A stretch of DNA of 64,000 nt from Shigella phage JK55, in sequence record MK962758; one strand, given 5' to 3'. The translations under genes were made by a program, and so were the position numbers. A model generated the notes under the pieces. The model ran no database searches. It saw nothing but the letters and a program-made list of their open reading frames with translations, and was not told where the DNA came from. This document shows, piece by piece, positions 29,008 to 41,970 of this stretch; positions within the stretch are counted from its first letter, which is position 1, and every line of letters begins with the position of its first letter.

Positions 29008-31395
29008 ATGGCAGATTACAAGTTGAGTGAATTAAACTCAATTGATACAATTCGTTCAGACGACCTCCTTCATGTCAGGGTTAAAAAGAGACCTGAAATG
29101 CTGGGTGATGAAGACCGTCGAATGACCTATCAAGACTTCTTAGCATCTTTTAAACTAGAAAGGTTTGTCCAGATTGCTGGTAGCACTATGACGGGTGACT
29201 TAGGAATTGTCAAGTTACTTTATGGTGGTAAGGCAGTATTTGACCCTACAGGTTCTTCTGAGATTACTATGGGGGATGTTTTAAAGGCTTTTAAAATCAA
29301 TGCAAATGGTCTTAAACTAACTATTGCAGATGCTTCAAGGTCTGCAACTGTTTATCATACTCTTAATAAGCCAAGTCCTAATGAGCTTGGAATGAGAACC
29401 AATGAAGAGAATGATGCAAGATATGCAAGACTCGCTGTAAATAACGCCTTTAGGGCCACTCAAAATATTCTATCTGATAATGAAACTATTATTGTTAAGA
29501 ATGTTACACAAGGGATGCCGCTGTATATTCGCGGTCAAGATGCAGATGGCTCTAACAGGTGGTATCTAGGCAATGATAACAAAGGTACAGACAATCTTGT
29601 TTTAAAAAATGTTAAATCTGGTGCATATGTAGCTATTTTGGATAGCTTAATCACTGTGAACAAATCTATCCAGATTACTGGTCAAGTTCAGCCTTCTGAC
29701 TTCTCTAACTTAGATGCTAGATACTTTACTCAGACAGCAGCTAATCAGAGATTTGCACAGTTAGTTGGTAATAACACATTCAGTGGTTTAAACACATTCA
29801 ACCAACTAAGTGTTTTCAAAAAAGATGGTGAAGCAATTAGGCTACAGAATGCCAATGCTGCACAACCATTGTACATTAAGGCGATTGATAGCACAGGTGT
29901 CAACAGATGGTACATTGGTAATAGTAACGAAGGTGATAACGTAGCTCTAGAAAACTACAAAACTAGTGGCAAGATTACTGTAGGGACAAGTGTTAATATC
30001 AATAAAACACTAACTGTAACTGGTCAAGTTCAACCTTCAGATTGGACTAACATTGACTCTCGTTATGTTCTTATCGGTTCATACGCAAATCTTGCTAAGA
30101 AGAATGAAGCTAACACATTCACTTTACAGCAGAATATTCAATCTGATGGTGAAGCATTAAGAATCTACAGCAAGGCTCAGAATAATTCTTCTTACATTGT
30201 TGGTAAGAATACTGATAACACAAATAAGTGGTTTATCGGTTGTGGTACTAATGGTTCTGGTACGGCATCATTCCATAACTACTTGACTGGTGCAAGACTC
30301 GATTTAGCTGACGAAGTTCTTCTGTCTAAATCTCTACAGATTACTGGACAGGTAAAACCTTCTGATTGGTCTAACTTAGATGCTAGATTCTTGAAGGTTT
30401 CTGGAAGCACAGCAGCGAACCTTATTATTGACTCTACTAACCACGGTGTGATGACTGGTAAGCTTATCTCCATCCCAACTAGGGCTGACTGGAACAGACC
30501 ACAAGGTTTTACAGCTATGGCTATAGCGCCTGATTCAAGTGTCATCCCAGACTTCCCAGCAGGTCCAATCGCATACCTACACGTCTTTGCTAAAAGAGAT
30601 ACTAAAGGTGGTCAATTAGCATTCTTGGCAAACTACTCTACTAAGGGCATTTGGCTAGCGAGAAGTTTAACTTCAACTGATGCGATTACCTTTGAGAAAA
30701 TCTATACAGATGGTACTAAGCCAACCCCTTCTGAGCTTGGTGCATACACTAAAGCTGAAACTGACCAGAAGATTGCACAGGCAGTAAGTGACTCTACAGA
30801 CCTTAACAAAATCTACCCAGTAGGCATTGTAACGTGGTTTAACAGTAATGTTGACCCTAATACAGCACTGCCTGGCCTAACTTGGACGTATCTGAAGAAT
30901 GGCGTTGGTAGGACTATTAGAATTGCAGCAGCAAATGGTTCAGATGTTGCTACAACTGGTGGTTCAGATTCTGTAACGTTAGCTGTTGGTAACTTACCTT
31001 CACACACTCACAGTTTTTCTGCTACCACTTCATCTTTTGACTACGGAACAAAAAACACTAACACGACTGGTGCTCACGCTCACTCTGTAAGTGGCTCTAC
31101 TTCATCTGATGGTTACCACAACCACGCTATCTCGTGGATTGGTCAGAACTCTACACACTACTCTGGTGGTGGTGGTGGTAGAATCGGTACAGGTCCGGGT
31201 TACACTGATGCGGGTGGTGCGCACACCCATACAATCTCTGGTACTGCCGCTTCTGCTGGTAACCATGCTCACAGTGTAGGTATCGGTGCTCACACTCATA
31301 CAGTTAGTGGTAACACTGGTGGTACAGGTTTTGGTTCAGCATTTAGTGTTACTAACCAGTTCTACAAGTTAATGGCTTGGGTAAGAACTGCTTAA
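29008..31395 (+). CDS. long tail fibre protein with three internal repeats and His-rich C-terminal domain
   Basis: three copies of ITGQVQPSD(F/W)(S/T)N(L/I)D(A/S)R(Y/F); C-terminal HTHS/HAHS/HNHA/HTHT repeats and ending [18 protein letters not shown]. Confidence 0.75.
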
Positions 31396-31474: not shown

Positions 31475-31672
31475 ATGCCTACAATCCTAGCAATTCTTCT
31501 AAAAAATCTAGGTAGCTTCTTCTGGAAACTCATTTTATCCCTTCTAAGTGAATACATGATTGAGAAAGTGTTCTTTAGGCTTGCAAGATATCTTGCGAGT
31601 AAAACAGACACACCTATTGATGATGAGTTCGTAGATAACTTAGAAAAAGCTTTTAAGGGGGAGAATAAATGA
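31475..31672 (+). CDS. small membrane protein
   Basis: 65-aa ORF with hydrophobic N-terminus. Confidence 0.4.
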   Translation: MPTILAILLKNLGSFFWKLILSLLSEYMIEKVFFRLARYLASKTDTPIDDEFVDNLEKAFKGENK

Positions 31673-32040
31673 AGTGGCTAGAGGAAGCTTTTAAAAACAA
31701 TATTGGTGCAATTGTTGTTGGTATTTTTAGTGTTATTGGGATGTATACCACTATGCAAGTTTCAAGTGGTAAGCAAGAAGTGTCTGTCACAACAAAGTTA
31801 CAGCAGCTAGATAATTATTCCAAAAGTAACTATTCAGCTATTCGTGATTTACAGTCTGACATGAGACTGATTCAGCTAGGGATGGAGAACCAGAAAGTTC
31901 AGTTAGAGAATGTTAAGGGTGAAAACGCAAAACTTACCAAAACTCTTGATAAATTCTCTGACAGTGTAAATAATCTGGCTCAATCAGTATCAGCCCTCCA
32001 AGCTATTACTGAGAAGAACACAAAGAATACTGAAAAATAA
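31669..32040 (+). CDS. membrane-anchored coiled-coil protein (possible lysis-associated)
   Basis: N-terminal TM segment IGAIVVGIFSVIGMYTT followed by coiled-coil. Confidence 0.4.
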   Translation: MKWLEEAFKNNIGAIVVGIFSVIGMYTTMQVSSGKQEVSVTTKLQQLDNYSKSNYSAIRDLQSDMRLIQLGMENQKVQLENVKGENAKLTKTLDKFSDSVNNLAQSVSALQAITEKNTKNTEK

Positions 32041-32078: not shown

Positions 32079-32978
32079 CTACTTACCTACTGACAAAGGT
32101 GCTTCAATCTTTCCTGCATGTTGGTAGTTACTAATTCCACCGATAAAGTCACTTGCAGTAAGATGTTTCAGGTCACTTAAAGTATTAAGTTGTAGACCAA
32201 TCTCAAAAGTTGGTGCATGGAACTCTTCATTGTTCATCAGTTCATAAACCTGCTTCATATGGTTCTGATAAATCTGAGTATCCCCAAAGACACCTATCAA
32301 GTACCGTGGAGTATATCCAGTCATCTTGCAAAGTACTTCCAGAATAAAACCATAAGATGCAATGTTAAATGGAAGACCTAAAAAGGTGTCTACAGAACGT
32401 TGATACCATTGTAAGTCAACCTCACCTTCGTTAGTGATATAAATCTGAAACAGAACATGACAAGGTGCTAAAGCCATTGAGTTAGCTGCAATATCTGCTG
32501 CATTCCAAGCATTAACAAGCATGTAACGGTCTGTGATATCACCTTTCATCTTCGTTACTAAGGTCTCTAACTGGTCTACAACACAACCGTTATGACCTTC
32601 AAAGTTTCTCCACTGAACCCCGTAGATTCTCCCACCTGCATCTTCTAACCAGTCTTGCTCAGAAGAATAGTTAGAGCTTAACCAGCGTTTAAAATCATCT
32701 GACCAGATAGTCCAACGTTCCCCATCATTTTCACCCCAAGTACGATAACGGAGTTCACCAAGTTTATTCTCACCATTCAGGAACCATAAAGCTTCCCCAA
32801 TAACTTGCCGTGTAAACACCTGTTTAGATGTTAAGAGTGGGAAACCAGTACGCATATCAAAACGAAATTGTGGTGGAGCAAATGCAGAGATAACATCTCC
32901 AGTTCGTGTAGTACGCAGTTCACCAACGGATAAAACATGGTTCAGGATATTTTTGTAACTCAAATCAGCTTGTGACAT
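32079..32978 (-). CDS. thyA: thymidylate synthase
   Basis: active-site region LAPCHVLFQIYI and QRSVDTFLGLPFNIASYG. Confidence 0.9.
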   Translation of the reverse strand: MSQADLSYKNILNHVLSVGELRTTRTGDVISAFAPPQFRFDMRTGFPLLTSKQVFTRQVIGEALWFLNGENKLGELRYRTWGENDGERWTIWSDDFKRWLSSNYSSEQDWLEDAGGRIYGVQWRNFEGHNGCVVDQLETLVTKMKGDITDRYMLVNAWNAADIAANSMALAPCHVLFQIYITNEGEVDLQWYQRSVDTFLGLPFNIASYGFILEVLCKMTGYTPRYLIGVFGDTQIYQNHMKQVYELMNNEEFHAPTFEIGLQLNTLSDLKHLTASDFIGGISNYQHAGKIEAPLSVGK

Positions 32979-32979
32979 A

Positions 32980-33525
32980 TCAAAAGTGCCCTTTTACTTG
33001 TGGAACATAAATCTCAAAGGTTGCTTTACCATCCTCTGAGGGTCTTGATTGTACCTTTGCAAATACACGGCTATCATACAGTTTATCAAAGAAGTTTTCA
33101 AAAGGTAAATACACAGTGGCCTCTTCAGTGACTTTATGGAAAACTGTATGGAAAACTACACCAGCATACGGCAAAGCATCGACAAGAACACCTGCACCAC
33201 CAATTACAAAGACATCTTCATCAATAGAGCTATCAAGATACTTCAAAAATGCTCCAAATGACTCTTTACTGGCTTTAGCATACATTACATCATCTTTGCC
33301 AAAGTCTATGCCTAAGTATGGTACAGAATTTGTTAAGATGAGGTTTGCACGTTCTGGTAAAGGTTTACTACCCAGAGTCTTAAAAGTCTCATTACCCATG
33401 ACTACTAAGTTATTTTTAGTGAGTCTCTTAAACTCTTGCATGTCCTGTTTATGTCGAGGCCACGGCATACCAGTCGGTGTACCAAATTCACCGTTTTCAC
33501 CACTTGCAAATATTAGTTTAATCAT
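32980..33525 (-). CDS. frd: dihydrofolate reductase
   Basis: N-terminal MIKLIFASGENGEFGTPTGMPWP and VVMGNETFKTLG; immediately upstream of thyA. Confidence 0.8.
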   Translation of the reverse strand: MIKLIFASGENGEFGTPTGMPWPRHKQDMQEFKRLTKNNLVVMGNETFKTLGSKPLPERANLILTNSVPYLGIDFGKDDVMYAKASKESFGAFLKYLDSSIDEDVFVIGGAGVLVDALPYAGVVFHTVFHKVTEEATVYLPFENFFDKLYDSRVFAKVQSRPSEDGKATFEIYVPQVKGHF

Positions 33526-33565
33526 TTTGTAAACCCTTTCTTAATGAACCAGTTGATGACACTCT

Positions 33566-33781
33566 TCACAAATTTACTACGATGGTAGATAAAATGTGAG
33601 AGGGTTGGTATGAACCATAAGCCCAGAAAGCGATAATTTCATTACACCCTGTGCATCGGGTACTTTCTTCAGCAATATGACCATTGACTATTTCACTTAC
33701 CTCACCTTGTAAGTCTGTACACCCACAATGTGGACAACGGATAGGTGTTCCATCAGACTCATAGCAGTGTTCAATTTTCAT
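33566..33781 (-). CDS. zinc-ribbon protein
   Basis: CPHCGC...CTGC cysteine pairs. Confidence 0.45.
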   Translation of the reverse strand: MKIEHCYESDGTPIRCPHCGCTDLQGEVSEIVNGHIAEESTRCTGCNEIIAFWAYGSYQPSHILSTIVVNL

Positions 33782-34297
33782 CTATTTAACCTCAAAAACT
33801 GGCTCAAGAACCAATATAAAGCCTACACAGTCATCTTCTTCATCCAGAATACCATCAAAGTTCTTAGGAACGAAGTCGAAGAGGCTCATAACAAAGCAGT
33901 CAGAAGTGACCTTGATAGTTCCTCCCATGTTCTCTACAGTCAACACTGTACGACTTTCTTTTACCTCCCTCAGAAGATTACCCACAAAGTCGTCTAAGAA
34001 GTACTTCATCAATGACTTAAAACCTTTAGGATAATCTGTACCAGAGTATGTTTCAATCTGAGGTACAAGCTTAACATTTATACTAGTCTTTGTTAAGAAC
34101 GTTTTAGAGAACATACTATCAGGTAACTTACAAACAGTCTTTCCAGTACCTTCATGCTCAATCTCAACAAAACCAGCTTCGTCGCCACATGTAACTATTT
34201 TAAAAGATGCTTCATTCTCATACTGTGAAGCCATAAACTTTTTAAGCATCTCTTTAAGGAAGTCTGCATGAGCATCTTGTAAGAAGATATCAATCAT
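33782..34297 (-). CDS. hypothetical protein
   Basis: 171-aa ORF. Confidence 0.45.
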   Translation of the reverse strand: MIDIFLQDAHADFLKEMLKKFMASQYENEASFKIVTCGDEAGFVEIEHEGTGKTVCKLPDSMFSKTFLTKTSINVKLVPQIETYSGTDYPKGFKSLMKYFLDDFVGNLLREVKESRTVLTVENMGGTIKVTSDCFVMSLFDFVPKNFDGILDEEDDCVGFILVLEPVFEVK

Positions 34298-34310
34298 AGT
34301 TAATCACCTA

Positions 34311-34670
34311 TTATGGGAACAAACACTTAATGTCATCGTTTTTGAAAACAAAACTTGTGTAATTATGACCATCAACATCCAGCCAAACAGCCTGAACATC
34401 TACACCATCAAGATTTTGGTAAAGCTCTTTGATGAAGTGGTCTTTTACAATCTGACTGCTAGTTGTTTCCAACTTAATGTTCGAGATTGCTGAACCTACA
34501 GCCATATAGCCCATGACACGTTTCTTCTCAGTATGCTTAATCTTACCATCTTTGTAAGCCATAATGAGATTGGAAAGAATCTTTACACCATAATACTTTT
34601 CAAGGTGAGTAGGTACACCATAAAAGCCTAATGCGAAGTTTTCAGAGTGGATAATGTTTTCACGTTTCAT
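34311..34670 (-). CDS. hypothetical protein
   Basis: 119-aa ORF. Confidence 0.45.
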   Translation of the reverse strand: MKRENIIHSENFALGFYGVPTHLEKYYGVKILSNLIMAYKDGKIKHTEKKRVMGYMAVGSAISNIKLETTSSQIVKDHFIKELYQNLDGVDVQAVWLDVDGHNYTSFVFKNDDIKCLFP

Positions 34671-34671
34671 A

Positions 34672-35001
34672 CTAGTCTGCCAACCTTAAATTGAAATTAA
34701 CACCAAATTTTTCACATACTTCCAACATATACTCAAGGGAAACATTACCAGTGAGGTGGATTATGTTGGATACACGAGCCTGAGAGATACCACAAATTTT
34801 AGCAACTTGCTCTTGAGAAAGACCTCTGGATTTAATCTCTCTCTTAAAACGATGTGCAACGAAGTCTCTCATTTCGTCTACATCCATTGGACAAATATAA
34901 CTCTCCATTTCAGCCTCTCTATCAGCCTCCCAATCATCTTGTGGAGCATAAGGGTCAAAAACTTCATTCATCTTTCTTCTTCCGTTTGCGTGAAGTGTCA
35001 A
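34672..35001 (-). CDS. XRE-family helix-turn-helix regulator
   Basis: C-terminal HTH LSQEQVAKICGISQARVSNIIH. Confidence 0.6.
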   Translation of the reverse strand: MTLHANGRRKMNEVFDPYAPQDDWEADREAEMESYICPMDVDEMRDFVAHRFKREIKSRGLSQEQVAKICGISQARVSNIIHLTGNVSLEYMLEVCEKFGVNFNLRLAD

Positions 35002-35177
35002 TCAATGAATCTATGTTTGTAGCCCTAACCTTTTCACGTTCATCGTTAAGATAATCATCAAGAGCCTTTTCAATCTGTGAATCATCTTGACAGATAACTG
35101 TAAAGACTGTAAAGCCGTCTGTATCGTCAATTATCTTACCATAACCGCTTCTGGGATGTAACTTTTTAAGAGCCATA

Positions 35178-35561
35178 TCAAATACCTGTGCAGCTTCTGT
35201 TTTCTAAGAAATACTCAACACCATACATAGCTTTTTGCATCAAATCTTCTTTAAACTGGATACGATGATTAAGCATAGCCTGTACATCAATATCATCATG
35301 GTGCTTCTCTTTGATATTTGCAGATTGCAGGAAATACTCTGCAAGAACACGATACTGATAGTCAGTTACCTTATCAGTCATCTCTGTTAAAGACTCTTCA
35401 GAGATTGGTTTAAGTAGCTCACCATTAGCCAGAGCAACACCTTTTACAATCTGACAAGTGTCTTCTGAAACACCTGATAAGTCAACATTTGGAAGTTCTG
35501 TTGCATTGACTGGTAAATTTATTGCCATAACCATTGCAGCAGCTAATAAAATCTTTTTCAT
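35178..35561 (-). CDS. secreted protein with Sec signal peptide
   Basis: MKKILLAAAMVMAINLPVNA followed by TE; RBS gagg upstream. Confidence 0.6.
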   Translation of the reverse strand: MKKILLAAAMVMAINLPVNATELPNVDLSGVSEDTCQIVKGVALANGELLKPISEESLTEMTDKVTDYQYRVLAEYFLQSANIKEKHHDDIDVQAMLNHRIQFKEDLMQKAMYGVEYFLENRSCTGI

Positions 35562-35745
35562 AATGACCTCAAAGTTATATTAAATTTTGTATTACATTGA
35601 GTATAAAAATAAGCTATAACACCTGACTTGTCAACAGATTTTATAGCTTATTTGGCAGATTTTTTATAAGGCTACTGCCATCCTTCCATACCAAACCCTA
35701 CCGAACAGAACCATGCTTTGCCATACTGGACAACACCTGACCAGA

Positions 35746-35783
35746 CATCACTTAAAAACCCTTTCAAAGACTCTTAAGTGATG
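35746..35783. repeat. hairpin repeat R1a (10-bp stem catcacttaa/ttaagtgatg)
   Basis: near-identical copy R1b at 36030..36069. Confidence 0.6.
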
Positions 35784-35784
35784 T

Positions 35785-35823
35785 AATCGAATTTTAATGT
35801 AGCTCCGATTAACTACCCATACC
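35785..35823. repeat. hairpin repeat R2a (stem aatcg/cgatt, loop attttaatgtagct)
   Basis: copy R2b at 35943..35981 keeps the loop and tail but changes both stem arms compensatorily. Confidence 0.6.
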
Positions 35824-35826
35824 TTG

Positions 35827-35880
35827 CATTACTTCACCAAACCGTACATTACTTCACCAAACCATACATTACCAGACCAT
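35827..35880. repeat. tandem direct repeats of 20-mer cattacttcaccaaacc(g/a)ta, about 2.5 copies
   Basis: units at 35827-35846 and 35847-35866 plus a degenerate third. Confidence 0.6.
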
Positions 35881-35942
35881 GCCACACCTGTCCAAACTCA
35901 ACCTCATTAAAAGACCCTGTTTAAAGACCTTTTAAAAAGGTA

Positions 35943-35981
35943 AGTCTCATTTTAATGTAGCTGAGACTAACTACCCATACC
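35943..35981. repeat. hairpin repeat R2b (stem agtctc/gagact)
   Basis: see R2a. Confidence 0.6.
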
Positions 35982-36029
35982 AAACAGCACCGCACTATGC
36001 CTTACCCCACCTCACCGAGCCTCGCCCCA

Positions 36030-36069
36030 CATCACTTAAAAAACCCTTTTCAAAGACTCTTAAGTGATG
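36030..36069. repeat. hairpin repeat R1b
   Basis: see R1a. Confidence 0.6.
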
Positions 36070-36283
36070 TTGGTGAGTACCCGTTGGTTTATGCTGCTCA
36101 GTATACTCACCAAATTTTCTATGTCAACAACTTTTTATAAAAAGTTCTGATAGCTATATGTGTCACGAAACAAAAGATTGTAAACAAGACACCCATTGCA
36201 AAAGATGTGTCCAAAAGCTTACTTGCAACATATGACAATACAAAGACAACCAGTATAAACATAATGACTGTACTGAACATAGT

Positions 36284-37387
36284 TTACTCATAATCCCTAA
36301 TAACTAGCCCAACAGGAAACTGTAAAGAACCCTTACGAGTCATCTTCTGGAACTGAACCGTTAAAGGTTTCCCGATAAACTCTTCAGGATGCTCAGCAAG
36401 ATACTGTTTCTTCTCATGAGTAGTCTTCCATGAGACATCTACAAAGACGTTAGGAAGAGTCTCTACAACGAACTTACCGTGACCACGTTTATCGGTCTTG
36501 ACACCAGTCACTTTAAACTCTTCAGTGTGCATCTTCTTGTGCTTAATCAAGAAGTATGAACGGTGACAACACTCATAGAAGGAGTCTTCAGAGATTGAAC
36601 GGTACATTGCACCTTCAAACTTAGCTTCAACCCACTTATCATGAGCTTCATCAAACTCTTCCCAAGAATTTACACGACGAGATTTAACAGGGACAACTTT
36701 ACAGCCGTCTCTAAAGTCATTCAATGGTGAAGTCTCAATAATATCTCTACGCTCAGGCCACGTTTTAGTACTGTCACAGATATCATACCAGTAGAACTTA
36801 AGTAAGTGTCTGTCAGGATTGTCTTCATTTTTAATCATGGAGACAATATCTTCTAAGTCCCACCCATGAGCATAAATCTCTCCATCAAATTCATCAACAT
36901 CTTTGTGGAGCCTTAACATTGCCATAATGTCAGGTATTAGTTCAGTAGGGATTTTGTAAACAGTATTCTCACGAGAATATGCTGTAAATACACTGCCAAT
37001 ACTTAAGTGTCTTGAAATTCTACAACGTACACCATCAAGTTTTGGTTGAGCATCAGCAGGGAACTTCAGATACTTTGCATGACTAACCTTTGCAGCATCA
37101 TGAGCAAGTTGTACACCTACTTTCTCAGTATTCTTTGCAGACTCTTTTGTGTAAGCGTAGCCTTTACGGTCAACTTGCTTTTTATACTTAGCAGCAACTT
37201 CAAAGAGAGCTTGCTGTTCAGCGTTACGCTCATTCTTTTTACCGATGTTTTTCGGTTCTGCTGTGTACTCTTCAAACATCATCTTGCCATTTTCTTTACC
37301 ATAGGTTGTAATAACTTTGTCACCTACAGCAACGCATGACCAGACGTTGAAAGAGCCATCTTTATTTTGTTTGTATAGGATTGTCAT
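36284..37387 (-). CDS. ATP-dependent DNA ligase
   Basis: motif I PKLDGVRC, motif III FDGEIYAHG, motif IV FEGAMYRS, motif V FLIKHKK; RBS agagga before ATG at 37387. Confidence 0.75.
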   Translation of the reverse strand: MTILYKQNKDGSFNVWSCVAVGDKVITTYGKENGKMMFEEYTAEPKNIGKKNERNAEQQALFEVAAKYKKQVDRKGYAYTKESAKNTEKVGVQLAHDAAKVSHAKYLKFPADAQPKLDGVRCRISRHLSIGSVFTAYSRENTVYKIPTELIPDIMAMLRLHKDVDEFDGEIYAHGWDLEDIVSMIKNEDNPDRHLLKFYWYDICDSTKTWPERRDIIETSPLNDFRDGCKVVPVKSRRVNSWEEFDEAHDKWVEAKFEGAMYRSISEDSFYECCHRSYFLIKHKKMHTEEFKVTGVKTDKRGHGKFVVETLPNVFVDVSWKTTHEKKQYLAEHPEEFIGKPLTVQFQKMTRKGSLQFPVGLVIRDYE

Positions 37388-37389
37388 TT

Positions 37390-37581
37390 TTATTCCTCTG
37401 AGTGATACCAAGTATTGCAAGCATTACATGCGTAAAGCTCTAAGTCATTTTTATCTGGTTTATGAAAACAGTTTGCTCCGCAGTGGCAACGAAATGGCTT
37501 TCCACCAACTGTCAGGACGAAGGACTGAATCTTTCCATCAGGAGTCCGTACAGCATTTTTATGCTTATCTTCTTTGTTCAT
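37390..37581 (-). CDS. small Cys-rich protein
   Basis: 63 aa with CHCGANCFH and CNACN. Confidence 0.4.
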   Translation of the reverse strand: MNKEDKHKNAVRTPDGKIQSFVLTVGGKPFRCHCGANCFHKPDKNDLELYACNACNTWYHSEE

Positions 37582-37883
37582 TTCCTCTTGCCACCAATTT
37601 CTACGTCAATAACTTGAACATCACCAGCAACATCAAACTTATGAATGATGCTTTCCACAGTGTAAGTCCAACCATCAATGCGAACCAACTCACCTTCTCG
37701 TGGGACGATTGGGTTACGTTGAGCTACCGTTGTAGTAGAGTGAACAACATCATAACAATAGATATAGTTTACTAGGACTTCCATCGTGAAACCCTCACTC
37801 AATAACCGTAGTGTGTGATTGACCATTTTTGCCATAGCTATAAGATGTTGTTGTTTGGGAGTTTGGACATCTGACAACAACAA
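37578..37883 (-). CDS. hypothetical protein
   Basis: 101-aa ORF. Confidence 0.4.
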   Translation of the reverse strand: MLLSDVQTPKQQHLIAMAKMVNHTLRLLSEGFTMEVLVNYIYCYDVVHSTTTVAQRNPIVPREGELVRIDGWTYTVESIIHKFDVAGDVQVIDVEIGGKRK

Positions 37884-38031
37884 TATCTCTGCTTATAGCA
37901 TCACCATGTAACTTGTATACTCTGCAATCTTGCATCTCTGGTGGGAGGCTGTAAGAAGCATTTTTATCTTCATAAGAAGGGTTGCAGCCAGATAGAAAAA
38001 TAACACCAAGCGCAATTACTGATTTCCACAT
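37795..38031 (-). CDS. small lipoprotein
   Basis: signal MWKSVIALGVIFLSGC with lipobox LSGC; mature part about 60 aa. Confidence 0.55.
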   Translation of the reverse strand: MWKSVIALGVIFLSGCNPSYEDKNASYSLPPEMQDCRVYKLHGDAISRDIVVVRCPNSQTTTSYSYGKNGQSHTTVIE

Positions 38032-38044
38032 AATACACCCCTGT

Positions 38045-38200
38045 TTACTGTTCACGATGCTCTACTTCTCTGTATGTACGTCGATAATGAATGATAAGTG
38101 GTGCTAATTCATTGCTTTTAACATTTGAGCGTAACAGTTGCCAGTCAAAACCTTTACCAACTCTTCCATATAAATTAAAAAACTTAACTTTGCGTTTCAT
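38045..38200 (-). CDS. possible unannotated 51-aa basic ORF
   Basis: MKRKVKFFNLYGRVGKGF...; RBS ggaga upstream; below ORF-track size cut-off. Confidence 0.3.
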   Translation of the reverse strand: MKRKVKFFNLYGRVGKGFDWQLLRSNVKSNELAPLIIHYRRTYREVEHREQ

Positions 38201-38218
38201 TTTCGGTATCTCCAATAT

Positions 38219-38446
38219 TCAGAGGTTAATATTAATACGTTCGCCCTTAAGGACTCCAGTACGGTCCCTTGCAATCTTACCATCAACAATAAGGATATGC
38301 GCAGACCTTAAAGAGTCATTATTAAAACCTTTTACGAACTTACTAGGCATCACTACAATAAGCATCTCCTGAATCAACTCTGGAGTATAGCAGTTATCAT
38401 GAAGTTGTTGGATAACGTCTGCAAGTGTCATTTTTGATGTCTCCAA
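38219..38446 (-). CDS. hypothetical protein
   Basis: 75-aa ORF. Confidence 0.4.
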   Translation of the reverse strand: METSKMTLADVIQQLHDNCYTPELIQEMLIVVMPSKFVKGFNNDSLRSAHILIVDGKIARDRTGVLKGERININL

Positions 38447-38637
38447 TACTCAATGTCAATAAGTTCTTGTGCAATGCTTTTCAGATTACCTTTCAAGAAA
38501 ACCTTCTCAGAACCTGAAAGAGATGAATTGTCAATTAACCTGTTCATTCTCTCAAACAACTTCTGCTTACGGTTCTTGATAGTTTCCTTTGAAGCGCCTT
38601 TCATCATCGCTGCATGGGTTCTTCCACGATGGCTCAT
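38428..38637 (-). CDS. hypothetical basic protein
   Basis: 69-aa ORF. Confidence 0.4.
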   Translation of the reverse strand: MSHRGRTHAAMMKGASKETIKNRKQKLFERMNRLIDNSSLSGSEKVFLKGNLKSIAQELIDIEYWRHQK

Positions 38638-38688
38638 AAGTCCTCCTATACAAGATATTGTATAAGGTACTCTTCCCTGAGCACCTTG

Positions 38689-39201
38689 TCAAGATAGTTT
38701 TGCAAACTCTCCGTGGAGTTTAATAGCAGCTTCACAGTAAGCTTTATGGGCTTCTTCTGGTGTGTCAAACATACCAAGATGATAGTTTTTACCTTGTAAA
38801 CGTATCATTGCTCGAAACCTTTTACTTATCTTCTGTACACCTTTTGGCAACCCAGATGGGGACTCTCTTGACCGATTGCAAGAGTTTTGTGAAGCTGTAC
38901 AAACCCTTAAATTCAAGTACCTATTGTCCCAACCGTCCCCATTCTTATGGTCAACCTGTAAGGTTTTATCAGGTAGATATCCATCCATATACAAGATAAC
39001 TAAACGATTTGCTTGGTAACCCCTTCCATCAATCAGCAACTGAACTGACTTGTGTCCATCAGTATTTGTTCTGTAGTTTCCAGCCCTCTTACCTCCAAAT
39101 CTAGAGTTAAAGTTTGCATTACCTTCTCTAAACTTCCAAGTAAAGACCCCTGTTTCGGGGTCGTAGTCCAATAGCTCCTTAAGACGAATTTCTGTAATCA
39201 T
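38689..39201 (-). CDS. HNH homing endonuclease with AP2 DNA-binding domain
   Basis: HNH motif VDHKNGDGWDNRYLNLRVCTASQN; AP2-like GVQKISKRFRAMIRLQGKNYHLGMFDTPEEAHKAY. Confidence 0.8.
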   Translation of the reverse strand: MITEIRLKELLDYDPETGVFTWKFREGNANFNSRFGGKRAGNYRTNTDGHKSVQLLIDGRGYQANRLVILYMDGYLPDKTLQVDHKNGDGWDNRYLNLRVCTASQNSCNRSRESPSGLPKGVQKISKRFRAMIRLQGKNYHLGMFDTPEEAHKAYCEAAIKLHGEFAKLS

Positions 39202-39211
39202 TTCAACACCA

Positions 39212-41911
39212 TCAATGCACTTCCAACCAGCTCTTACCAACCTTACCTGTGCCAGTTACAAGCGTCTCACTCTTCAAACCTAAATTCTTAGATGCCTGAC
39301 CATACATCCAGTCAGTTATGGCTTTAACTTCTTGAGTCATACTTTCTGGGCACTCCCAACTGTTTTCATCGTGGTATGCCAGCAAAAGCCTAGCACCAAT
39401 TGCTGGTTTTCGTCCATTTAATTTTGTCAACCCTTCTTCACATGCTCTTCTACAAGCAAGGTTAATTGCCTCATTTTGAATCTGAGCCTCTGAACCCATC
39501 AAAAGATAGTTCAATAATTTGTGTGGAGATTTACACCACAACCAAGCTCCTGCAACCTTTACAAAACCTCCTTTAGAGATTGCAGCAGTCTTACCAAACA
39601 CCTCTTCAAGTGCCTTTTTAGTTGCTTTGTAGTCAGCTTCCAAGTCATCTAGCAGCTTCTTAATTTTAGGCAAACGAATAAAGTAAGTCTGTTTAGTTAG
39701 TGCGCCTTCCTGAGTAGTTGCAGCTTTAATCGTCTTAGCAAACTTCTCATCACCTGCACCGAACAGCAGTGCATAGATACCATTCTTAGCTTTCTTACGA
39801 CCCTTACTAATCTCATGGAGAAGGTTCTCATCCTGAGTAGCACGACAAGTCAAGATGTCCTGCTCATCATTCAAGCTAAAGTAAATACTATTCAGTGTAT
39901 GCGCATCAGTCCCTGAATAGACAACATACAGGTCATTCTCAGAGTCATAACGAAGGTACTTATCAATCTCTGGGTTGAGGTACTCATCAAAGTGTTTGCA
40001 GTAATAGCGTCCATCTTCTTGACGAATAAACTCAATCTCTTCTTTACCTTGCGTTACCGCTTTGGTGAAGTCTTTGTCACCCATAAAGTTACAAAGGAGA
40101 ACTAGCTGGGCTGAGTTCATGTCTACAGAGACAACGTTAGTACCTTCTTCACAAATCCACACTGCCCTCATTGGTTCCCCATAGACAGCAGCACCAGACG
40201 GTACGTTTACAATACCATATTGTGTCATACGTCCAGTTGAAGTGCCAAATACCATTGCACCAGCACTAAGGCGACCATCAGGACGAATCTGGTTCAACCA
40301 ACCTTTTTCATCATCTTTTGAGTTCTCAATAGTTCTGCGTCGGTGCATTAAAGTATAGTACTTAGCAATCTTCTGTCCAAGCTCACCTTCAATCGTATCA
40401 TAAGATGATTCAGTAAGTTTTGGTGAAGTACGGATTAAGCAAGGCTCAAGCAAATCTGTGTACTTCTTCACAGACCAGTTATGCTCAATGTACTGTACAC
40501 CTTCGTGCTCAACATAGCTCAAACCACACCGCTCAACCATTTCCTGCCACTTAGGATGTTTTGTAATCATCTTTTTATTGTCTTTGAAACGACAAACTTT
40601 GACAGGGCGACCGTCTGAGTCTTTCTTGTAGTTCCAGTCATCTGGAATCCAACCAACTGATTTCAAGTAGTCTTTAACAACTGCTACCTGAGTCATACGA
40701 GAAACTTCAAACTCAATTGGTGTATATGGTGCATCAATCAAACCTGTGTAGCGACTTGACTCAAGTTCAAAGTGGTTAACAACGTGGCTGTTATAGTACT
40801 TCACAGTTTTGACTGTTTTTACTGGCTTCCAGTCTTTGCATTTCTTACCAATCTTTGCATTCAACTCATTGCAAATTGCACGAGCATCCTTCATTGCTAC
40901 AAAACCTTCCTTGTACTCTTCACCAGTTACAGAGTTGGTTGGTGTATAGCAATTCCTTTTTTCAATGTTAAAAATCTTTGTAGTTGGCTTACCAAATGGT
41001 TTGATTTCATAAGTCTGCATCTCACCATTACGTACCTGCTGACGATACTTTGTCTTAGGGTACTTGGTAATTCTTTTCAGTCCATCTGCATGACCAAATG
41101 TTTCAACATACTCATTCCAAGCTTTTGCAAACTCTTCTCCAGTGACTTTACCTTTGGTCTTAATAGTTGGAGGTAGATGTGGTTCAACCTCTGAAGCAAG
41201 CTCATTAGTCAACTTGTCAAGCTCCTTTACATGGAACTCCATAAGCTCTTTATCAGCTTTCCAACCATTGATAGCTTGTTGACTCATCCAGAAAGATGTT
41301 TCTTTAGCTCGCATGTAAGTTTCATAAGTGTCTATACCACACTTCTTAAGCTTGAGATACTCGTTATCAAGTGCCCGTTTAGTTTTGGCATTAATACGGA
41401 TATCTTCTACAACACGAGTGAAGATTTCTGCATTCCACACACCCCAATGTTCAATCTCTGGTTTACGGACACCAACACGAGCACCCCATGCAGCCAAACC
41501 ATGAGCACCTTTATAGCCCTTTGGAGTTGGTCTATCCATCCACTGAACACGGGACTGGATAAGAGAATCCTGAAAGAAATTACTCCACGGTTTACACTTT
41601 GGATTATCAAAGTTCCATAAATCAGGTGCAATGTGATTAAAAACCCACCAGTCATAACCGAGACCATTATGGATGCAAAGACGTTTTGCCTTTAACGCAA
41701 ATTCAACACCTTCACGTAAACCACCTTTGATGTACTTAGTGTACTTGTGACCGAGGATAGGCTCATCTGTAAAGACCCATACAGGTGGCTCTTCATCGTC
41801 AGATTTATAGTCTGCAAAGGCCATTACGTGAACTTTAGTGAACTCAAGGAGTAAACCATCAGTTTCTGTATCACCAACCAAATGTAAGTTTTTAAAATCT
41901 ACGTTTTCCAT
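39212..41911 (-). CDS. family A (Pol I/T7-like) DNA polymerase with 3'-5' exonuclease domain
   Basis: exo I GDTETDG, motif B-like KKAKNGIYALLFGAG, motif C LLAYHDENSWE; RBS gagggag before ATG at 41911. Confidence 0.85.
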   Translation of the reverse strand: MENVDFKNLHLVGDTETDGLLLEFTKVHVMAFADYKSDDEEPPVWVFTDEPILGHKYTKYIKGGLREGVEFALKAKRLCIHNGLGYDWWVFNHIAPDLWNFDNPKCKPWSNFFQDSLIQSRVQWMDRPTPKGYKGAHGLAAWGARVGVRKPEIEHWGVWNAEIFTRVVEDIRINAKTKRALDNEYLKLKKCGIDTYETYMRAKETSFWMSQQAINGWKADKELMEFHVKELDKLTNELASEVEPHLPPTIKTKGKVTGEEFAKAWNEYVETFGHADGLKRITKYPKTKYRQQVRNGEMQTYEIKPFGKPTTKIFNIEKRNCYTPTNSVTGEEYKEGFVAMKDARAICNELNAKIGKKCKDWKPVKTVKTVKYYNSHVVNHFELESSRYTGLIDAPYTPIEFEVSRMTQVAVVKDYLKSVGWIPDDWNYKKDSDGRPVKVCRFKDNKKMITKHPKWQEMVERCGLSYVEHEGVQYIEHNWSVKKYTDLLEPCLIRTSPKLTESSYDTIEGELGQKIAKYYTLMHRRRTIENSKDDEKGWLNQIRPDGRLSAGAMVFGTSTGRMTQYGIVNVPSGAAVYGEPMRAVWICEEGTNVVSVDMNSAQLVLLCNFMGDKDFTKAVTQGKEEIEFIRQEDGRYYCKHFDEYLNPEIDKYLRYDSENDLYVVYSGTDAHTLNSIYFSLNDEQDILTCRATQDENLLHEISKGRKKAKNGIYALLFGAGDEKFAKTIKAATTQEGALTKQTYFIRLPKIKKLLDDLEADYKATKKALEEVFGKTAAISKGGFVKVAGAWLWCKSPHKLLNYLLMGSEAQIQNEAINLACRRACEEGLTKLNGRKPAIGARLLLAYHDENSWECPESMTQEVKAITDWMYGQASKNLGLKSETLVTGTGKVGKSWLEVH

Positions 41912-41970
41912 TTTTACTCCCTCTAAAATCATTAACCTCATACATTACTGCAAAAAATTATAAAAAGCAA

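Follow-up and report, generated by a model that had tools for sequence, protein, structure and literature searches.

Phage proteins that are sent to the host envelope decide which phage wins in a co-infected cell and the loss of progeny on debris, and the examples that are understood (Llp, Cor, Rtp45, Spackle and Imm) have each revealed both a mechanism and a vulnerability of the host. The lipoproteins Llp, Rtp45 and Cor bind, on its periplasmic side, the outer-membrane protein that serves as receptor for their own phage, the pairs T5 Llp-FhuA and Rtp45-LptDE being established, and in siphophages their genes sit beside the receptor-binding gene (PMC9586334; PMC12685063). As a case to set beside these, we consider two genes of Shigella phage JK55, one encoding a small lipoprotein and the other a secreted protein, both carried on a stretch of 64,000 nucleotides of sequence record MK962758 (hereafter the window). 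The two open reading frames (ORFs) lie on the minus strand, where an original prediction made from the letters of the sequence had placed them as candidate superinfection-exclusion or envelope-modifying factors. The explanation we favour, with a probability of about 40%, is that both are envelope-level accessory or competition factors acting through periplasmic protein binding.

The window belongs to the genus Felixounavirus and the region carrying the two genes is 98% identical to Escherichia phage tootiki. This region is matched by 259 phage records, essentially all of them Ounavirinae (Felixounavirus, Mooglevirus and Suspvirus). The two proteins are unrelated to one another and are not virion components: when virion association was checked against the proteome of Felix O1, neither ORF87 (orthologue of the secreted protein) nor ORF91 (orthologue of the lipoprotein) was among the 17 virion proteins detected by mass spectrometry (PMC3185647).

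Predicted export of the two proteins

The lipoprotein ORF starts with an ATG, preceded at 6-7 nucleotides (nt) by a GGGG Shine-Dalgarno sequence, and a GTG at 38055, which corresponds to the start in Felix O1, is an alternative. Its N-terminus (MWKSVIALGVIFLSGC) carries the lipobox L-S-G-C with the cysteine at position 16 (Cys24 if the GTG start is used), so that the predicted signal has the form expected of bacterial lipoproteins ([LVI][ASTVI][GAS]C, cysteine at 15-35), and the mature part, which contains CNPSYEDKNASYSLPPEMQDC…VVRCPNSQTTT…GK…, is close to the length of about 60 amino acids (aa) that had been announced for it. In a PROSITE-type scan of all ORFs and starts in six frames, this is the single credible lipobox gene of the 64 kb, the remaining two hits being antisense and within long genes. 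The protein is 82% identical to Felix O1 ORF91 and matches phrog_902 at 1.9e-16, PHROG 902 being labelled 'unknown function'. Neither sequence nor profile searches found a relative in Pfam (to E<=10), NCBIfam, PADLOC or the Protein Data Bank (PDB), and there was no fold match, the only library match for the family being a generic lipid-attachment-site model that recognises 27 of 135 members. PF16225 is listed as a precomputed domain in the table of homologues; it was not reproduced by a direct hmmscan and was disregarded, and our literature search found it mentioned in no paper. The structural model is a small beta-meander (predicted local distance difference test, pLDDT, 69.7).

The secreted-protein gene has a GAGG Shine-Dalgarno sequence 5 nt upstream and its product begins MKKILLAAAMVMAINLPVNA/TE (the slash marking predicted cleavage, …PVNA/TE), with an n-region MKK, a 13-residue h-region ILLAAAMVMAINL and a V-x-A cleavage motif. 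With its n-, h- and c-regions, small residues at -3 and -1 and paired cysteines, the sequence has what is expected of a Sec-exported protein, and, apart from this 127-aa product, no protein encoded by the ORFs of the coding strands has a classical cleavable signal. Across 32 homologues, some as little as 30% identical, there is no variation in the signal peptide, the alanine at -1, C36, C124 or a GELxKP motif, which bears out the Sec signal originally assigned to this ORF. The protein is 98% identical to Felix O1 ORF87, matches phrog_4332 over its full length at 1.9e-66 (PHROG 4332, also 'unknown function') and is restricted to Ounavirinae, where it occurs in 258 of the 259 records, in 32 clusters. 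Its AlphaFold2 model has a pLDDT of 86.8, rising above 90 across the mature part, and predicts helices at 31-45, 55-86 and 93-121; no match to Pfam (to E<=10), NCBIfam, PADLOC or the PDB was obtained by sequence or profile.

Against JohannRWettstein and Mushroom, the ratio of non-synonymous to synonymous substitution (dN/dS) is 0.05-0.10 for each of the two genes, a level of purifying selection similar to that of dihydrofolate reductase (DHFR) or DNA polymerase. With their invariant signals and cysteines, both are genuine, conserved proteins predicted to be envelope-targeted, as had been claimed, and on the strength of these sequence features the export of both is well supported.

The lipoprotein family and its spread

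An exhaustive HMMER search over 1.84 billion representatives (E<=1e-3) extends the lipoprotein family to 475 clusters at 50% identity, of which a word-indexed search yielded close relatives only; the family is large, unnamed, and crosses phage families and host genera. Its consensus reads …L-x-G-C-(10)-Y-x-L-P-x-E-L-x-D-C-K-x-Y-x-L-(9)-V-V-R-C-P-N-S-x-T-T-T-x-Y-x-x-G-K. In a 135-sequence alignment C16, C36 and C55, that is the lipid-bearing cysteine and two more, are invariant, and P30, P56, T60 and K68 are conserved at 90% or above. Among the members examined, a lipobox is present in 147, of which 133 have 19-21 residues between the lipid-bearing cysteine and the next one, 118 have exactly one extra pair of cysteines and 23 have two. 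This odd number of cysteines is the pattern expected of a lipidated, disulfide-bonded periplasmic protein, and the JK55 lipoprotein carries all the motif elements of the PHROG 902 family, including the lipobox and the tether of 19-21 residues. The residue at +2 is variable in the family; it is Asn in JK55, for which the Lol sorting rule leads to expect an outer-membrane location in enterobacteria.

By tblastn against GenBank phages, the family is found in 596 records, and its carriers are virulent phages of Escherichia, Vibrio, Aeromonas, Acinetobacter and Erwinia that are unrelated to one another: Ounavirinae, T5-like Vibrio phages (Demerecviridae), T4-like Aeromonas phages (Straboviridae), Acinetobacter phages, Vequintavirinae, Certrevirus and the jumbo phages Asteriusvirus and Eneladusvirus. 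Members also occur on plasmid-like contigs of A. baumannii of about 111 kb and on varied IMG/VR contigs of up to 381 kb. The family is rare in bacteria and prophages, a single locus with the core motif being found among 185,579 bacterial species genomes. This locus, in Hylemonella gracilis ATCC 19624 (NZ_AEGR01000062.1; L014 4956-5234), has the strict VVRCPNS[QST]T motif and encodes a member of 92 aa with the lipobox …SLAGC/D. In P0027 and P0089, predicted proteins as long as 1017 and 2972 aa, 5-7 tandem stretches match the lipoprotein core (33-68 for P0027 and 32-67 for P0089); these two proteins look like translated DNA repeats (…SVVELRDQSFSLHSRALSSIIAAPR…) and are probably spurious gene calls rather than multi-domain relatives.

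When 23 neighbourhoods from different lineages were compared over 4 kb on either side, the lipoprotein gene was the only gene common to them, so that it has no conserved phage partner gene. In six annotated loci of lineages other than that of JK55, it is surrounded by small ORFs and lies next to genes for replication, repair or nucleotide metabolism, with no structural gene within 4 kb on either side and never beside tail-fibre or lysis genes. Of about 259 Ounavirinae records, 196 contain the gene and 63 (about 24%) lack it; it is cleanly absent in phage RPN213, and frameshifted copies exist (P0013 and P0014). The lipoprotein is thus a dispensable, horizontally mobile single-gene module, as expected for an accessory or competition gene.

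These data bear directly on the idea that the lipoprotein masks a receptor in the manner of T5 Llp, Cor or Rtp45, shutting off the receptor of its own phage so that the cell is not infected again and progeny are not lost on cell debris. The size class (about 6-7 kDa for the mature protein), the lipobox, the internal disulfide and the virulent phage are all those of this mechanism, which is itself established for T5 Llp-FhuA and Rtp45-LptDE (PMC9586334; PMC12685063). However, hhalign of the 135-sequence profile against Llp aligns only 19 columns of signal peptide and lipobox, the mature parts being non-homologous, and phmmer and hmmsearch of the lipoprotein against the PDB gave no Llp match at E<=10 with Llp present in the library. 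Between JK55 and Mushroom the lipoprotein is 88% identical, as against 59% for the long tail fibre (74% for the short fibre), and neither the lipoprotein nor the secreted protein tracks the divergence of the tail fibres. Phages of Vibrio, Aeromonas, Erwinia and Acinetobacter, whose tails are unrelated, have relatives of the lipoprotein at 35-50% identity, and Felixounaviruses depend on the core of lipopolysaccharide (LPS) rather than on an outer-membrane protein as receptor (PMC8594841). We therefore regard receptor masking as very unlikely, and the analogy with T5 Llp that had been drawn for this gene is not supported: it comes down to an alignment of signal peptides, with no linkage to a receptor-binding protein, no co-variation with the tail fibre and an LPS receptor.

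The secreted protein, its upstream region and the gene block

The identity of the secreted protein to its homologues is bimodal, at 93-100% within Felixounavirus and about 32% to the Moogle- and Suspviruses. Compared with Moogle, it is the most diverged full-length orthologue of the 64-kb window (32.3% versus a median of 78.6%, to which the lipoprotein, at 79.5%, is close), and the other orthologues that evolve fastest are small ORFs without known function, located in the blocks for replication and nucleotide metabolism. To be near-invariant within a genus and most diverged between genera is the pattern of a specific protein binder and argues for a lineage-specific partner. Homologue P0207 is a natural chimera that joins a Felix-type signal peptide to a Moogle-type mature protein.

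Directly upstream of the gene lies a sigma-70-type promoter whose -35 box stands between the arms of a palindrome, these arms being perfect over 13 nt (AAATAAGCTATAA, at 35607-35619 and 35641-35653); this combined element is unique in the window. About 95 nt of the upstream sequence (within 35562-35680) are 100% identical in six Ounavirinae including Moogle, in contrast with the coding sequence that follows, only 32% identical at the protein level. It is possible that this invariant stretch is a recombination anchor for the swapping of alleles. The secreted-protein gene, the 70-aa ORF that follows it and a Cro/CI-type helix-turn-helix (HTH) regulator are in the same order in JohannRWettstein, Mushroom and Moogle and, given a 1-nt and an overlapping junction, are apparently co-transcribed. 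We infer that the palindrome is a candidate operator for this regulator, encoded two genes downstream, which may bind there and regulate its own expression.

The same divergence could be read as that of an inhibitor of the Spackle type, in which the secreted protein (or the lipoprotein) would inhibit the muralytic enzyme at the tail tip of a superinfecting phage and so block DNA entry in the periplasm. The secreted protein is small, predicted to be Sec-exported, all-helical and disulfide-bonded, as T4 Spackle is, and it is genus-specific and diverges fast between genera. The analogy with T4 Spackle or RI is nevertheless unsupported, as there is no similarity of sequence or fold, and no muralytic or tail lysozyme domain is detectable in the tail genes, so that Spackle activity has no evident target; the comparison with T4 Sp made by the original prediction is unsupported as well, and we hold such an inhibitor to be quite unlikely.

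A role in lysis was also considered, with the lipoprotein as o-spanin or spanin accessory, or the secreted protein as an RI-like periplasmic antiholin that times lysis. Felix O1-like genomes have their lysis genes dispersed (PMC4319497), T4 RI is likewise a small helical periplasmic protein, and two proteins of the window have each been called 'holin' by annotators (Table 1). The first, a 185-aa DUF7338 membrane protein, is named holin in Mushroom and is absent from Moogle; the second, a 123-aa N-terminally anchored coiled-coil protein, is a putative holin in Moogle and is 91-100% conserved. The same annotation group thus gave this name to two different genes in different relatives, and the true holin of the genus seems unsettled. 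As to RI, the window encodes no homologue of T4 holin T, leaving no evident target, and the secreted protein shows no co-variation with the two holin candidates (in Moogle one is absent and the other 91% conserved), on which grounds the RI/holin-T idea was dropped. As to spanins, the annotations of Mushroom (84161-84671) and Moogle place an overlapping i-spanin/o-spanin pair at another site, which means that this role is already filled. The lipoprotein gene has no i-spanin gene beside it and is absent in about 24% of relatives, and its product is not rich in proline and has a pair of cysteines that is intramolecular; an o-spanin identity is excluded by the separate spanin pair and by the dispensability of the gene. 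Taken together, a function in lysis is highly improbable for either protein.

Both genes lie within a leftward-transcribed replication and nucleotide-metabolism block (32079-41941) that runs opposite to the tail-fibre genes. In the direction of transcription this block comprises DNA polymerase, HNH endonuclease, small ORFs, the lipoprotein (flanked by soluble ORFs of 56 aa and 68 aa), two small ORFs, DNA ligase, a 53-aa membrane ORF, a 560-bp spacer, the secreted protein, the 70-aa ORF, the HTH regulator, three small ORFs, DHFR and thymidylate synthase, and the gene order is kept in JohannRWettstein, Mushroom, Felix O1 and Moogle. The genes had been described as part of an early leftward block away from the structural genes. 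The oppositely transcribed block of replication genes is indeed there, but the long tail-fibre gene ends at 31395, 3.8 kb from the secreted-protein gene and 6.4 kb from the lipoprotein gene, and 'early' is right only in part: by reverse-transcription PCR in Felix O1, ORF87 was maximal at 25 min and was placed by the authors in their 'middle' class, alongside ligase (ORF88) and polymerase (ORF96) (PMC3185647).

Such a position also suits a role in host takeover or anti-defence that has nothing to do with other phages, for example by inhibiting an envelope stress pathway, a protease in the periplasm, an enzyme of the cell wall or of division, or a defence sensor at the membrane. Every lineage examined has the lipoprotein gene in this position among takeover-type small ORFs and replication genes, the lipoprotein family is independent of receptors, has many hosts and has no phage partner, and the fastest evolvers against Moogle are the secreted protein and small unknown ORFs of the replication and nucleotide-metabolism blocks. 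On the other side, no match to PADLOC or to a characterised inhibitor was found and the sequence names no target. We consider this role rather unlikely, and it overlaps with the explanation that we favour instead of excluding it.

Table 1. Positions in the JK55 window of the two genes, their surroundings and the two genes called 'holin' (aa, amino acids; TM, transmembrane)
Feature	Position	Strand	Description
Secreted (periplasmic) protein gene	35178..35561	(-)	127-aa precursor, 107-aa mature three-helix bundle (predicted); PHROG 4332; Felix O1 ORF87 orthologue
Lipoprotein gene	37795..38031	(-)	78-aa precursor, predicted signal MWKSVIALGVIFLSG/C, 63-aa mature protein; PHROG 902; Felix O1 ORF91 orthologue
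Sigma-70-type promoter TTGACA-17-TATTTT in palindrome	35606..35653	(-)	promoter 35634-35606, score 10/12; directly upstream of secreted-protein gene
Second strong sigma-70-type promoter-like site TTGACA-16-TATACT	36100..36127	(-)	score 11/12; 3' end of 53-aa ORF, heads spacer
Cro/CI-type HTH regulator	34672-35001	(-)	HTH_3 match 6e-10
70-aa ORF	34964-35176	(-)	downstream of secreted-protein gene
Spacer	35562-36118		about 560 bp, non-coding, repeat-rich
53-aa ORF, PHROG 22006	36119..36280	(-)	two predicted TM segments (1-25, 26-45); phrog_22006 at 8e-32
DNA ligase gene	36284-37420		unbroken in the window
AP2/HNH endonuclease gene	38689-39240		
DNA polymerase gene	39212-41941		unbroken in the window
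DUF7338 membrane protein gene	6187-6744		called 'holin' by annotators
Coiled-coil protein gene	31669-32040		called 'holin' by annotators

The secreted-protein gene is the first after the spacer, which contains a 31-nt element twice (35754-35784 and 36040-36070, 94% identical), a 73-nt repeat three times and five further repeats, each rich in G/T and about 20 nt long (GGTTTGGTATGG type, minus strand). Its equivalent is annotated as three repeat_region features in tootiki and as 'possible binding site of StbAB' in KhF3, and the two extra ORFs that Mushroom and Moogle hold at this position point to an insertion hotspot. Between the spacer and the ligase gene, the 53-aa ORF encodes a third envelope protein, predicted from its membrane segments, within the region delimited by the two genes, one that the original prediction did not mention. 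It is variable (81% identity in JohannRWettstein, no real orthologue in Mushroom and no annotated ORF at this place in Felix O1) and loosely resembles small inner-membrane immunity proteins. An Rfam scan of 34500-39000 gave nothing above noise.

The ligase gene is split in many relatives (annotated 'DNA ligase x2', with the match lengthened by about 1.1 kb) and the polymerase gene is split in Mushroom, which is consistent with traffic of homing endonucleases. The record GU169904.1 ('Staphylococcus phage SA1', 147 kb) has at 90162-94864 a 94%-identical copy of the Felixounavirus region and two 'Campylobacter' phage records likewise match it; these three are probably chimeric or contaminated assemblies.

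Proposed roles and comparison with known systems

According to the explanation that we favour, the lipoprotein and the secreted protein would both be exported into the host envelope during infection. The lipoprotein would be a 63-aa disulfide-bonded small beta protein held on a membrane tether whose length is conserved and whose sequence (C-x-P/A-S/G-Y-x-D…Y-x-L-P-x-E-L-x-D-C) is conserved in part, and the movement of this single gene between unrelated virulent phages suggests that it most likely binds a host component, in the periplasm or outer membrane, that the Gammaproteobacteria have conserved, and not the receptor of its own phage. For its part the secreted protein, 107 aa long, would form a bundle of three helices stapled by a disulfide, without catalytic features and expressed from its own host-type promoter with an operator-like palindrome. 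Both would condition or protect the infected cell and so, in a broad sense, exclude competing phages, with protection against lysis from without or modulation of the envelope or of stress responses as alternatives within the same role. What remains of the original interpretation is thus a pair of conserved, predicted envelope-targeted and non-virion proteins, of which the lipoprotein is dispensable, and what is given up is the specific likeness to Llp and Spackle.

Several observations weigh against this explanation. No homology or fold match gives a function to either protein, and literature searches (Felixounavirus with lipoprotein, exclusion or transcriptome) returned no functional work on either family. 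Whole-gene dN/dS has no sign of an arms race, and ORF87 peaks at 25 min and not at 5 min, a later time than that of T5 llp and other classical exclusion genes. The model of the lipoprotein is of moderate confidence (pLDDT 69.7), and the Asp found at +2 in 14% of family members is a signal for inner-membrane retention in enterobacteria, so that localisation may vary among members.

A more specific way of joining the two proteins, which we find rather unlikely, would make PHROG 902 a receptor-independent effector and the secreted protein a genus-specific periplasmic exclusion determinant. The lipoprotein, with its D-C-K…V-V-R-C-P-N-S-x-T-T-T core and fixed-length tether, would then bind a conserved, possibly essential machine in the outer membrane or periplasm of the Gammaproteobacteria, such as the BAM, Lpt or Lol system or what tethers the cell wall to the outer membrane, and would represent a general mechanism of takeover or exclusion distinct from receptor masking; alleles of the secreted protein would be swapped through recombination at the invariant promoter.

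The family of the lipoprotein has no link with receptor-binding genes and so probably targets some conserved component of the envelope, which, if true, would be of interest to envelope biology and to antibacterial design. Felixounaviruses are widely used in biocontrol cocktails against Salmonella and E. coli, and exclusion of other phages by either protein, if true, would affect the design of such cocktails; should neither protein have a phenotype, the list of ordinary accessory ORFs simply grows by two. As a lead for experiments the finding is a reasonable one.

Among the known systems, the secreted protein compares best in type with T4 Spackle (gp61.3) and T4 RI, being like them a small, signal-bearing, helical protein, with a predicted disulfide, from a virulent myophage. 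The lipoprotein has the general build of T5 Llp (PDB 8A60 and 7QJF), a small non-virion lipoprotein of a virulent phage with a precursor of 77-78 aa and an internal disulfide. It differs from Llp in that its gene does not adjoin a receptor-binding gene or co-vary with the tail fibre and in that its family spans phages with unrelated receptors, the host receptor here being LPS according to the literature. With Rtp45 and Cor it shares a mass of about 6 kDa and an expected exposure to the periplasm, and its predicted small beta-meander may be set beside the docking of Rtp45 by beta-strand addition (PMC12685063). Unlike these two, it matches no PDB chain at E<=10, assuming that the 2026 copy of the PDB includes the Rtp45 entry 9RPS, its gene is placed differently, and its family is rare in bacterial genomes and prophages. 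Finally, like the o-spanins of the Rz1 type it is a phage-encoded lipoprotein of about 60 aa with a predicted outer-membrane location, but one that is encoded by a solitary and dispensable gene and combines a predicted beta structure with an intramolecular pair of cysteines.

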